A DNA stretch of 47,981 nt, taken from a virus. Taxonomy: Duplodnaviria; Heunggongvirae; Uroviricota; Caudoviricetes. Both the position numbers and the translations under genes were made by a program. A model generated the notes under the pieces. It was given only the letters and a program-made list of their open reading frames with translations. It searched no databases and was not told where the DNA came from. Of the stretch, positions 6,110-9,272 are shown piece by piece. The stretch is from IMG/VR virus record IMGVR_UViG_3300022468_000772, positions 150,224-198,204 of that record. One strand, 5' to 3'. How positions within the stretch are numbered: position 1 is the stretch's first letter; every line of letters starts with the position of its first letter.

Positions 6110-7432
6110 TTAGAAATTCAATGCACGTGCTTTCATTTCGTCCCATGTTGGCTTGTACAAGACTTCGCCACGGCTATAGTGTTTTACATACTGGTCACTG
6201 AACTGACGACCACCGCGAGACTTCTTACCTTGATCAGTGATAGGATTCTTCACAGTATCCACCCACAGACCACCGATTTTCATGGCAGAAGTCTTTTGTG
6301 CGAACTTCATTGTGTCGCGAGTCACCGATTGCAGCAAACCACCACCAGAACCCAAAACAACACACTCCGGTGCATAACCCAAGTCAATGACCTTTTGCAT
6401 GAGCATCATAGCACTGGTTGGATTGATACCGTCGCCTTGAATGATACCCACGTTGTTGATCACTTTCTTACCCTTGGAATTCATGGTGAATCCAAAAGCT
6501 GCTTCCTGCATTGCAAGCAGTCGTGGAACAACTTCAAACATGTCGCCGGAATCAGGACGGAAAACTACCTTTGCACCGGATGCAATGATCTGTTCTTTAA
6601 ATTCAGTACAGAGCAAGCCTGCTTCACGATACACATTATATCCATCAAGAACGATAGATACAATACCACCCTTTTTAGCATACTTGTCCAACATAGTCTT
6701 CAAATAAAGACGTTGACTGGCTTCACCGTATGAACATTGAACAGAGTGTTCAGATGCAGGGACACTGTAACCGGCAATATCAGCACCATAGTAGTGACGC
6801 GCACCCATCAAAGCAGAAACGTTGTCGGTACCATTGAAGTAAATTAAGTGACCCAGACCACCAGCAACTGCAGACTCATGAGAAGTTGCACCACGTTGTC
6901 CAAAATCATTCAGGGCAAAACCGAGATTACCAATATTGTCGGAGTATTTCTCATACATCCACTTCAAATTTTTGTAAAGCTCCAGTCCTTGAGAAGCAAT
7001 TGTGGTTGGATACCAAACGGAGCGTTGCATTGGTGTTTCGATAAACGAAGCCAACGTAAACATGCCCGGAATATCACACTCAACCGTTACCAGTGGTACA
7101 TCAGAATCAACAACTGTACCTTCAGGAACAGCATAGATTTCGATTGGAAGGTAACCACCATATTCATTGATAACACGATCCCACATACCACGATCAAATG
7201 GTTCACCATGGCTAGTGATAACGTATTCTGCTTCATCAACAATTTCCTTTGTGACTGGTGTAGTCAGGTATTCATCAATGAACATTGAAATACCGAGTGA
7301 TACGGCTTTCTGCCCCTTGACACGTGCCTGAATGTACGAAGACATTGCACTTGTGTCTTTTGGATACACATCTGGAACTTGTGAATATTTGTAACTGTCG
7401 GCTGCGGTTACGATAGATTTTTGCATTGGCAT
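6110..7432 (-). CDS. nadV: nicotinamide phosphoribosyltransferase (NAMPT)
   Basis: ADSYKYS, LNDFGQRG, SVPASEHS, SIVLDGY, VFRPDSGD, IIQGDGI, GSGGGLLQ: full NAMPT motif set. Confidence 0.96.
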   Translation of the reverse strand: MPMQKSIVTAADSYKYSQVPDVYPKDTSAMSSYIQARVKGQKAVSLGISMFIDEYLTTPVTKEIVDEAEYVITSHGEPFDRGMWDRVINEYGGYLPIEIYAVPEGTVVDSDVPLVTVECDIPGMFTLASFIETPMQRSVWYPTTIASQGLELYKNLKWMYEKYSDNIGNLGFALNDFGQRGATSHESAVAGGLGHLIYFNGTDNVSALMGARHYYGADIAGYSVPASEHSVQCSYGEASQRLYLKTMLDKYAKKGGIVSIVLDGYNVYREAGLLCTEFKEQIIASGAKVVFRPDSGDMFEVVPRLLAMQEAAFGFTMNSKGKKVINNVGIIQGDGINPTSAMMLMQKVIDLGYAPECVVLGSGGGLLQSVTRDTMKFAQKTSAMKIGGLWVDTVKNPITDQGKKSRGGRQFSDQYVKHYSRGEVLYKPTWDEMKARALNF

Positions 7433-7460
7433 AGTGAAACTCCTTCTTTATGCGTTGTTT

Positions 7461-7493
7461 TGAGTGCTTGACAAGAGGGCACTCATTCCTCTT
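7461..7493 (-). promoter_or_regulatory. candidate H-type RNA pseudoknot in the nadV 5' leader
   Basis: AAGAGG-AA-UGAGUGC-CCUCUU-GUCAA-GCACUCA: S1 6 bp and S2 7 bp, all Watson-Crick; L1=2, L2=0, L3=5. Confidence 0.6.
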
Positions 7494-7516
7494 TGGTTAA
7501 CTTTAGGCATATTTAC

Positions 7517-7930
7517 TCAGTTCAAAATTACTTCTTTTTTCTTGAAGAAGTGGAAAAGTGCCCGAACCCAATAATCATCTGCCGATTCCATATCACCAAT
7601 ATTTGAAAACCATTCGGTAAACGCCATTTCGATAGTGTCTTTGGCTTCTTTCAAACCCAAACCAGAAACAGTGCGCAGCCCACGAATCGCAGCCACTTTA
7701 TCACGACTTAAAACAGCCTGAATGATTTTTGAAAATGCTGCTTGACGATCTTTGATCATGTTTGTCTCGTAATGAGACGATTCTGGTTCTTTATCCACAA
7801 CTGTTACAGTTGGAATTTCAATGACAGGAATTCCTTCGAGGATGATGTAAGCTGCCTTGGTGGGAGCCGAATTGATTGCCAGTTCAACCAGCTTTGCCAG
7901 AGTTTCTTGAGAAAGATTGGAAATGTTCAT
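7517..7930 (-). CDS. ribosomal protein bL12 (L7/L12) C-terminal-domain-like protein
   Basis: [24 protein letters not shown] matches the bL12 CTD signature (E. coli [24 protein letters not shown]); flanks are not bL12-like. Confidence 0.75.
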   Translation of the reverse strand: [137 protein letters not shown]

Positions 7931-7959
7931 TTGAATTACCTTTGTGTTTGGATAAACGA

Positions 7960-7968
7960 ATTATAGCA
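7960..7968 (-). promoter_or_regulatory. extended -10 early-type promoter
   Basis: TGCTATAAT followed by TCGTTTATCCAAACACAAAGGT. Confidence 0.75.
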
Positions 7969-7985
7969 CAACTTTTAGCTCTGGA

Positions 7986-8159
7986 TCATTTATTTGTAGA
8001 CCGAATACGTTTATTGATTTCTGCAATTTTGGCATTGGTCAAGTCAACCCATTCAGCATAGCTTCGTACTTCCTGCATTTGCTGAATGGATTGCTTCATT
8101 TTAATAAGCTCTTGTTTGAACTTATTCGCATCCATGATTTGCTTTTTGTTTTTAATCAT
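7986..8159 (-). CDS. small hypothetical coiled-coil protein (57 aa, not in ORF track)
   Basis: ATG..TGA ORF MIKNKKQIMDANKFKQELIKMKQSIQQMQEVRSYAEWVDLTNAKIAEINKRIRSTNK with AAGGA RBS. Confidence 0.6.
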   Translation of the reverse strand: MIKNKKQIMDANKFKQELIKMKQSIQQMQEVRSYAEWVDLTNAKIAEINKRIRSTNK

Positions 8160-8202: not shown

Positions 8203-9225
8203 TTATACACGATAATACGAGTTTTTGTAAGCCGGAAGAGGCATCACACCAGTCATTTCCATAATGATGTGGGTGTGATCATCAAAACCAGCGTACTTGG
8301 GATTGTTCAGGGCTTCAGAAATCAATACCCATTCGCATTCCATCGCATCATCTGCAGGGCGGAATTCAGGCAAAGAACCATCAGGATTTGGTTCAATCTT
8401 GATGTGGATGACCTGAGTGATCCGAGGAATACCACAACCACGGTTTGGATCATCAAAGGTGCGCCGAGCAACCACGGAACCACGGAGTACCTTTTCGGGA
8501 ACGCGCAGATTGGTTTCTTCAGTCAGTTCACGGAAAACACATTCCTCGAATGTTTCATTGTTGTTTTTGTGACCACCAGCAATAGCCCATGTGCCACGGC
8601 CCGGCAAACCACCACGCTTCACCATCAGCACGTGACCAGCGCACTCTACGAGAGCATCACCAGTGCAGAACTGCAGGGTTTCTGGATAAGGGTATGACGC
8701 AAACTTTTGACGTTCAGAGACAAAGTAATTCCAATCATCGTATACTTCTTGAGTAACCAATGACGGTGTGTTTTCAAAAATGTTTCGACGGAAAGTTGTG
8801 CCGTTAATAGTGATGTTGGATTCAATCTCAACATACTTGTATTTTGGGAACCACTTGAGATATCCGGTATCTTCCTTCGAGTGACCAAACATCAACACTT
8901 CAACTTCTTCTTCGTAGTGCATGCTGGTTGTGTATTCGATATACGAAGTGATATCTGTAATCCACTGGCTGTTGTTGTAGCGATAGTCGTTCTGTGGCAC
9001 AAAAACCACATTGGTGATACCTTCATGATCAAGAAACAGTTTGATAGCCTGCACACGCTCTGCGTATGTCCATGGATTCTTGATTGTGCGAGGGGCGTTG
9101 GCTGAACCAACAAAGATCACGAGTTTGTCACAGCGCTTGCGTGACTCACGAATAAAGTGCCTGTGTCCAGTGTGCAAACCTGAAAACCGACCAACAATGT
9201 AACCTACACGGTACTTATTTTGCAT
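8203..9225 (-). CDS. nadM: bifunctional NMN adenylyltransferase / Nudix (ADP-ribose pyrophosphatase), NadM-Nudix/NatV type
   Basis: GRFSGLHTGH (HxGH), KNPWTYAER, and Nudix box GGHKNNNETFEECVFRELTEETN. Confidence 0.94.
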   Translation of the reverse strand: MQNKYRVGYIVGRFSGLHTGHRHFIRESRKRCDKLVIFVGSANAPRTIKNPWTYAERVQAIKLFLDHEGITNVVFVPQNDYRYNNSQWITDITSYIEYTTSMHYEEEVEVLMFGHSKEDTGYLKWFPKYKYVEIESNITINGTTFRRNIFENTPSLVTQEVYDDWNYFVSERQKFASYPYPETLQFCTGDALVECAGHVLMVKRGGLPGRGTWAIAGGHKNNNETFEECVFRELTEETNLRVPEKVLRGSVVARRTFDDPNRGCGIPRITQVIHIKIEPNPDGSLPEFRPADDAMECEWVLISEALNNPKYAGFDDHTHIIMEMTGVMPLPAYKNSYYRV

Positions 9226-9272
9226 TTGCGAAACTCCTTCTTTAATGCTTGTTTACGAAAGTATTTATCTAT

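Follow-up and report, generated by a model that had tools for sequence, protein, structure and literature searches.

Does the short mRNA segment upstream of the phage gene nadV, which encodes NAMPT, fold into a pseudoknot, and what would such a fold do for the gene? The question arose from a stretch of 47,981 nucleotides (hereafter the window; positions are those of the window unless stated otherwise), in which two interleaved stems had been read as an H-type pseudoknot at the 5' end of the nadV leader and proposed to act as an NAD/NMN-responsive or protein-bound RNA switch. The window is part of an IMG/VR virus record, a complete genome of 198,204 bp. This phage encodes homologues of RegA and gp32 and is therefore T4-like. 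Together, nadV and natV constitute the NARP2 pathway, by which phages rebuild NAD+ against NAD-depleting bacterial immunity (bioRxiv 10.1101/2024.02.11.579819).

The interleaved stems upstream of nadV

On the minus strand, the stop codon of a 137-aa bL12-CTD-like gene is followed by a gap of 84 nt and then by nadV. The features of this junction, in the order of transcription of nadV, are as follows.

7517-7930, minus strand: bL12 C-terminal-like gene, 137 aa (Pfam Ribosomal_L12, 5.3e-6, residues 75-103), with a TGA stop 6 nt before the ATG of the mini-ORF
7510-7516, minus strand: GTAAATA, at the junction between the end of the upstream gene and the start of orfX (bL12-like stop/orfX start)
7510-7448, minus strand: 20-codon mini-ORF, a remnant of orfX, running through both stems and ending at the ancestral UAA (7450-7448)
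7493-7488, minus strand: 5' arm of S1, AAGAGG, with the core GAGG at 7491-7488; in relatives, codons AAA GAG GAA (K-E-E) of orfX
7486-7487, minus strand: loop L1, AA; in relatives AA, AAU, AAC or UAU
7485-7479, minus strand: 5' arm of S2, UGAGUGC, paired with 7467-7461 and covarying
7478-7473, minus strand: 3' arm of S1, CCUCUU, inside the S2 loop, with the core CCUC at 7478-7475; in relatives, codons (GC)C CUC
7468-7472, minus strand: loop L3, GUCAA, constant in length and different in sequence among relatives
7467-7461, minus strand: 3' arm of S2, GCACUCA, covarying
7460-7454, minus strand: A-rich single-stranded linker of 7 nt, AAAACAAC
6110-7432, minus strand: nadV (NAMPT; Pfam NAPRTase 4.6e-37, NAMPT_N 2e-15)

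Both stems were found with the sequences and at the coordinates given in the initial annotation; they are perfect, with an L1 of 2 nt and an L3 of 5 nt, and no nucleotide (L2 of 0 nt) separates them. When both strands of the 198,204-bp genome were scanned for perfect H-type sites (S1 of at least 6 bp, S2 of at least 7 bp, L1 of 1-4 nt, L2 of 0-1 nt, L3 of 2-10 nt), the nadV element was the single site recovered. The analytic chance expectation is about 0.4-0.6 site per genome, or about 0.1 per 48-kb window, so that the pseudoknot is not significant in a single sequence and the case for it rests on comparison. As a nested fold computed with RNAfold, the nadV leader was no better than its shuffles (z = 0.06).

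Relatives came from metagenomes. When the region was compared by blastn with 50,697 phage records, no match was obtained, and the best NAMPT found there by tblastn was 44% identical, with no close cultured phage. Metagenomic contigs whose NAMPT was 89-100% identical, or which were found via the neighbouring small gene, provided 10 further distinct versions, and the comparison set consisted of the window and these 10 variants (alignment A5, 11 rows). All relatives are uncultivated and their clade is small. Searching IMG/VR with a single NAMPT protein and with exact or degenerate patterns of the element yielded nothing, or one chance match (L007); a scan of JGI metagenomes with a pattern of the initiation region yielded only six unrelated chance matches; and orfX alignments run against IMG/VR found none at first and then one distant homologue (L109). 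A covariance model of the element (R1), applied to 80 distant nadV loci and to the whole genome, recovered only itself, natV and weak matches resembling initiation regions.

The comparison gave a clear result for S2. Double-sided changes were present in four of its seven pairs, and two pairs occurred as three pair types each. Between 97 and 99% of the S2 cells were paired (97.4% in A5), against about 40-50% in controls with a slid partner (35-47% in A5, for slides of 1-3 columns), and the covariation score obtained on A5 was reached by none of 500 shuffles. S2 alone was predicted by RNAalifold. At least six fully paired haplotypes were found, including UGAGUGC/GCACUCA, UGACUGC/GCAGUCA, UGGAUGC/GCAUCCA, UUGCUG/CAGCAA and UUGAGGC/GCCUCAA. 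The compensatory changes swap amino acids of the orfX protein (S/T, D/I, N/I, A/S and E/L at i/i+6), and it is therefore the RNA pairing that was kept, not the peptide. The G.U pairs found in S2 of L005, L003 and L013 are compatible with the sense strand of nadV only. On this comparative evidence, S2, with 7-8 bp, is a genuine and selected RNA hairpin on the nadV sense strand.

S1 behaved differently. Its core GAGG/CCUC is invariant in 11/11 variants, which is uninformative on its own, with zero covariation, so that the GAGG:CCUC pairing is putative, and the outer two of its 6 bp are lost in three or four variants. The H-type pseudoknot first proposed thus remains a reasonable model, one half of which is backed by covariation in the relatives (compensatory changes in 4/7 pairs of S2), whereas the other half has an invariant core. 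Several observations nevertheless single out the S1 arms. Among 17 codon columns of orfX that are 4- or 6-fold degenerate and invariant in amino acid, 15 vary at the nucleotide level; the adjacent GCC and CTC alone are frozen, and they are the 3' arm of S1 (seven coding lineages of orfX, 58-82% nucleotide identity). The codon GAG, which is non-preferred for Glu and carries two S1 guanines, is fixed in 7/7 of these lineages, while the other conserved Glu columns are all GAA. For the gene next to orfX, 2/21 comparable 4/6-fold columns are frozen. Two independent deletions of orfX, one common to the window and L003 and the other to L004 and L005, both retain the sequence from (A)GAGG onward. In a rough energy estimate (Turner stacks and a Dirks-Pierce pseudoknot penalty of 9.6 kcal/mol without coaxial bonus, with unfitted parameters), every variant was more stable as a pseudoknot than as its nested MFE fold, by 2-5 kcal/mol. 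An L1 of 2-3 nt over an S2 of 7-8 bp and an L3 of 5-7 nt over an S1 of 4-6 bp are sterically ordinary for H-type knots. We consider that S1 probably forms, giving a compact H-type pseudoknot with an S1 of 4-6 bp around the core GAGG:CCUC.

A more doubtful reading is that only S2 is real and that no pseudoknot exists, the S1 complementarity being a by-product of the K-E-E...A-L peptide and of local codon choice. The absent covariation of S1 and the loss of its outer pairs speak for this reading, a single perfect 6+7 arrangement in a genome is close to the number expected by chance, and the distant homologue L109 retains a hairpin without any S1. The motif KLT(K/P)EE..AL is conserved in about 30 orfX clusters; since K-E-E-L-x-A-L is a conserved protein motif across the wider orfX family, the conservation of GAGG/CCUC is partly coding. 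The frozen synonymous sites (GAG, GCC and CTC) could also serve something other than S1. Amino acid conservation does not explain these frozen third positions, however, when 15/15 comparable columns vary. S1 is retained in the two non-coding remnants, and the energy estimate prefers the pseudoknot.

orfX, the gene that housed the element

Where the element lies in the relatives bears on its origin. In L008-L020, L012 and L110 it forms the final 17 codons of an ORF of 95-98 aa, orfX, whose C-terminus reads …KLTKEEL-x-ALxxSxxxxA* and which in most relatives is located between the bL12-like gene and nadV. No family match was obtained for orfX in Pfam and PHROGs. A global alignment of the window with L012 showed that the start region of orfX, GAGTAAATATG, is retained in the window, and that the orfX tail is identical from AAGTTAACC onward except for one deleted T; the phage of the window thus carries an orfX deletion of about 240 nt plus a separate 1-nt deletion. 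The deletion in L004 and L005 is a different one, which removed orfX from its start to two bases before AGAGG, and no convincing ORF runs through the element in these two contigs. As judged from the alignments, orfX was lost twice independently and its structured tail was kept both times. The 1-nt deletion brings the mini-ORF to the ancestral stop, which is suggestive of selection for termination at this place, a point to which we attach little weight.

Taken on the same grounds, the element arose as the 3'-terminal coding segment of orfX and not as a leader aptamer. The position assigned to it in the initial annotation, the 5' end of a leader, had to be abandoned, as it lies inside the 3' end of orfX in most relatives and inside the 20-codon remnant ORF in the window. 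The sequence GUAAAUA, taken there for a late-promoter-like motif, is present, but it is the stop/start junction listed above and is common to the window and L012 only. The TAAATA within 7510-7516 is preceded by G, while A or T precedes 22/24 of the gene-proximal TAAATA sequences in the genome. Close to its genes, this phage seems to use a motif of the form (A/T)TAAATA, mostly 8-45 nt before the start codon; the T4 consensus TATAAATA has 6 occurrences in the whole genome, none of them near gene starts.

Other features of the locus were noted during the comparison. All relatives have the bL12-like gene (7517-7930) conserved upstream of either orfX or nadV. The wider orfX family comprises proteins of about 90 aa in about 31 clusters at 50% identity (P0131-P0165; L012:2698-2985), with the motifs MK.YE..F.AYE…DGGGMR at the N-terminus and KLT(K/P)EE..(A/L)LG-like at the C-terminus. 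No homology was found between orfX and the ORF upstream of nadV in L006. The distant orfX homologue, located on an unrelated IMG/VR contig (L109:1094-1119), has a perfect 7-bp hairpin, GAAUUGG/CCAAUUC, with a 9-nt loop. This hairpin occupies the same place at the 3' end as in orfX, but lacks GAGG/CCUC and precedes a different downstream gene, whose ATG lies 17 nt after it and overlaps the stop region without an SD. The presence of a hairpin in the orfX tail may be ancient.

The junction has also been rearranged. In L020 (1238-1560), an orfX tail of the L008 type is joined to a nadV N-terminus of the L013 type, which suggests recombination within the conserved initiation region. With the two orfX deletions, this chimera indicates that the junction is a hot spot of modular exchange. 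In one lineage, represented by L015 (1001-1772) and L017 (465-1236), a 45-aa ORF and a gene for a 229-aa HNH endonuclease (Pfam HNH 2.5e-5) are inserted after the first three codons of nadV; the insertion has captured the nadV initiation region, and nadV restarts with another leader and another N-terminus.

The start-codon hairpin and a model for its coupling to orfX

Between the element and nadV, a second structure was found, which recurs at natV.

7453-7429, minus strand: hairpin of the nadV translation initiation region, with outer pairs GCAUA (7453-7449)/UAUGC (7433-7429) and inner pairs GAA/UUC
7443-7440, minus strand: SD of nadV, GGAG, in the apical loop of this hairpin
7432-7430, minus strand: AUG of nadV, base-paired in this hairpin
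9222-9248, minus strand: paralogous hairpin of the natV initiation region, GCAUU...AAUGC, with the same core as nadV, GAAGGAGUUUC
8203-9225, minus strand: natV (NMNAT-Nudix)

The hairpin lies 10-16 nt downstream of the element. The GGAG lies within a 5-nt apical loop, the AUG is buried in the stem, and the stop codon of the mini-ORF or of orfX (UAA, 7450-7448) is located within the 5' arm. The A-rich unstructured spacer described earlier is accordingly only 7 nt long (7460-7454), because GCAUA at 7453-7449 pairs with the UAUGC that includes the start codon. The SD is indeed unpaired, as had been stated, but the conclusion that no sequestration mechanism is evident was wrong, since the hairpin pairs the AUG. 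For each of the 14 nadV/natV leaders examined, this hairpin was the MFE structure (-3.5 to -7.6 kcal/mol). Its stem is replaced by compensatory versions: GCAUU/AAUGC in natV, GCAU/AUGC with each arm one base shorter, GACAUA/UAUGUC in L006, GAACAU/AUGUUC in L027 and GUCAU/AUGAC in L110. In the window its stability at nadV is -5.3 kcal/mol, rank 11-12 among the 117 initiation regions of the genome. Among the initiation regions of the 198-kb genome, those of nadV and natV alone contain the identical 11-nt core GAAGGAGUUUC, which has not changed in relatives with a NAMPT identity of about 68%. An upstream stop codon is located inside the 5' arm in every orfX-bearing relative (L008-L020, L110). At natV, the start-codon hairpin is present but no upstream ORF ends in it, and there is no pseudoknot. 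The natV hairpin lies about 14 nt after a late-promoter-like GATAAATA (9269-9262, minus strand), which in L008 reads TATAAATA.

In classical translational coupling, as in RNA phages and T4 operons, hairpins that mask a start codon are opened by translation of the upstream gene. The nadV junction has the corresponding sequence features, a start codon in a conserved stem and an upstream ORF that terminates within it. The reading we favour, to which we give an even chance, is that the 33-nt element is a selected structure, probably a pseudoknot, which derives from the tail of orfX and works as a translational-coupling and structure module for nadV. The start-codon hairpin would damp free initiation on nadV. 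Ribosomes terminating on orfX or on the mini-ORF, 15 nt before the AUG, would melt this hairpin and pass to the strong nadV SD, which would amount to translational coupling. Behind these ribosomes the pseudoknot would refold, tying the SD-like GAGG to the anti-SD-like CCUC; in this way it may insulate the initiation region from upstream sequence and perhaps add to mRNA stability, a role as insulator and stabiliser that is conjectural. As no convincing ORF runs through the element in L004 and L005, coupling through the element could not be universal.

A far-reaching version of control at this locus, which we regard as distinctly improbable, is that the pseudoknot and the start-codon hairpins of nadV and natV make up a dedicated operator, through which a trans factor coordinates the translation of the two NARP2 anti-defence enzymes. 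Such a factor might be a protein of the phage; a small molecule that signals NAD+ status is the less likely option. If true, this would mean that a T4-like phage controls NAD+ reconstitution through a post-transcriptional regulon.

Alternative functions and related systems

Translational operators bound by proteins are known for T4 gp32 and RegA and for the pseudoknots of E. coli S15 and S4, and a phage or host protein could likewise bind the pseudoknot, the GAAGGAGUUUC hairpin, or both, and repress nadV together with natV. We consider this unlikely. The geometry is gene-32-like (6+7 bp with a short L1), the fold ends at -29, at the 5' edge of the 30S footprint, the phage encodes both RegA and gp32, and the 11-nt hairpin core is exclusive to the two NARP2 genes in 198 kb and fixed at about 68% NAMPT identity. 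On the other hand, L1 and L3 are not conserved, which leaves few sequence-specific contacts, there is no long unstructured A/U stretch to which gp32 could bind cooperatively, and natV lacks the pseudoknot; RegA recognises AU-rich sites without structure around the AUG, and the difference from the nadV element counts against RegA. Little credence is also given to the element being a signal for mRNA processing or stability, i.e. a ribonuclease barrier or guide, for example for an RNase E cut in the A-rich linker, that would set the half-life of the nadV segment in a polycistronic transcript. A stable structure directly before a single-stranded A-rich stretch is consistent with this, as are its retention after orfX loss in two lineages, the hairpin at the same place in the distant orfX gene of L109 with another downstream gene, and hairpins read by eye at the ends of the unrelated upstream ORFs of L006 and L027. 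The inside of an ORF, upstream of its stop, is nevertheless an odd place for a 3' protector, and the frozen GAGG and CCUC would be left unexplained.

The metabolite riboswitch suggested by the initial annotation, which would control nadV in response to NAD+, NMN, nicotinamide, ADPR or PRPP, appears extremely improbable. Its appeal lies in the NAD-salvage context of the gene and in the fact that compact pseudoknots can be aptamers. A cmscan of positions 7000-8000 on both strands (E<=10), with the NAD-I/II and preQ1 models covered, returned no Rfam family for the element and two unrelated chance matches outside it. The would-be pocket positions in L1 and L3 vary freely among the 11 variants, in which fixation is limited to GAGG, CCUC and the stem-closing pairs, so that there is no sign of a pocket. 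The element is moreover translated in most relatives, does not include the SD, and is lacking at natV and at nadV genes whose identity does not exceed 69% (L006, L027-L042). An intrinsic terminator on the plus (antisense) strand, or another DNA-level signal, seems hardly credible either. A consensus scan did flag TGAGTGC...GCACTCA followed by TTCCTCTTTG on the plus strand, with the conserved AAAGAGGAA as a would-be T-rich tail, but the scan returned three terminator-like sites where shuffled sequences would give 2.4, the loop has 11 nt and the tail is broken by a C. The neighbouring genes are all on the minus strand, G.U pairs become A.C on the plus strand, and the frozen CCUC is not accounted for.

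Other candidates were tried and rejected. For a sense-strand intrinsic terminator there is no U-tract, AAAACAAC being what comes after S2. A pseudoknot stimulating -1 frameshifting would need a slippery X XXY YYZ heptamer, which is not conserved in the upstream …AAGUUAACCAAA and its variants; the orfX stop is within 10-16 nt, and orfX and nadV keep no constant frame relation, being offset by 18 nt in the L012 type but by 16 nt in the L013 type. If CCUCUU were to pair with the SD as an OFF state, the best duplex in the window would have 2+4 bp and a mismatch, and only 2-3 bp would form in the L014/L018 types; in every case S1 is stronger. Transcription from a sigma-70 promoter within the element (TTGTCA-N16-CATAAA) would start inside the SD, and the promoter scan made no such call. 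Compensatory S2 changes that are non-synonymous and a poor start context speak against a leader peptide, and the frame relation required for stop-codon readthrough fusing orfX to nadV is not conserved.

Among known systems, the autoregulatory gene 32 operator of T4 and T2, which consists of a 5' pseudoknot, an unstructured A/U-rich tract and the RBS, resembles the nadV element in topology only. The compact H-type fold, probable for the nadV element, has stems of 6-7 bp and a very short L1, and it is located some tens of nt before the start codon of a gene in a T4-like phage. The likeness noted by the initial annotation stops there: the nadV linker is 7 nt long and runs into a conserved hairpin instead of a long unstructured tract with UUAAA-type repeats, the downstream gene is nadV, and the element is translated in most relatives. 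A gp32 homologue is encoded elsewhere in the genome and has a separate leader of its own. That leader (C1:112502-112531, minus strand; L108:2288-2317; outside the window) contains interleaved AAUACAU/CCGGU/AUGUAUU/ACCGG directly after CATAAATA, with a 2-nt L3 that looks too short for the 7-bp S1 as written; an A/U-rich tract of about 50 nt leads to the AUG, in a layout like that of the gene 32 operator.

Coupling hairpins resemble the nadV junction in the paired AUG, the upstream stop in the 5' arm 15 nt before it and the exposed strong SD. They differ in that nadV adds a conserved hairpin or pseudoknot inside the end of the upstream ORF, and in that natV has the same hairpin with no ORF terminating in it. 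In the rpsO/S15 and alpha-operon/S4 operators of E. coli, the pseudoknot includes the SD or the AUG and traps the 30S subunit; these are likewise pseudoknots near a ribosome-binding site, used in post-transcriptional control, but the nadV element ends at -29 and excludes the SD. The NAD+-II (pnuC motif), NAD+-I (nadA motif) and preQ1-I riboswitches are also small and of pseudoknot topology, and the NAD classes share the metabolic context, whereas the nadV element shows no covariance-model match to them, no conserved unpaired nucleotides and no sequestration of the SD by the pseudoknot.

Cassettes with promoter-early stem-loops (PeSLs) have reportedly been described by Arbiol et al. in 2010 in hyperplastic regions of T4-type phages. 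A PeSL consists of a sigma-70 promoter together with a terminator, and each genome contains many copies. Common to both is a stem-loop at a gene boundary with modular exchange, here the orfX deletions, the HNH insertion and the swapped nadV N-terminus. Unlike PeSLs, the nadV element is single-copy, without U-tract or convincing promoter; covariance-model and motif searches of the genome found it at nadV only, plus natV for the hairpin part.

Among the papers that could be searched, none joined nadV to a pseudoknot, and none dealt with the timing or dosing of NARP2 enzymes by phages. NARP2 itself is already published; the nadV element belongs to the cis-acting mRNA structures found where phage genes adjoin, and only a small uncultivated clade has it. 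The locus offers a small, testable RNA module with comparative support and a hairpin exclusive to the two genes of one pathway. It also provides a case in which an RNA structure evolved within a coding region and outlived its gene, and it calls for caution with 'leaders' read from a single genome.

The strongest initiation-region hairpin of the genome lies outside the window (C1:50786-50825, plus strand). It has a stability of -14.4 kcal/mol, pairs the AUG and begins directly after a GATAAATA motif, an arrangement reminiscent of those T4 genes in which early transcripts mask the RBS and late transcripts leave it free.
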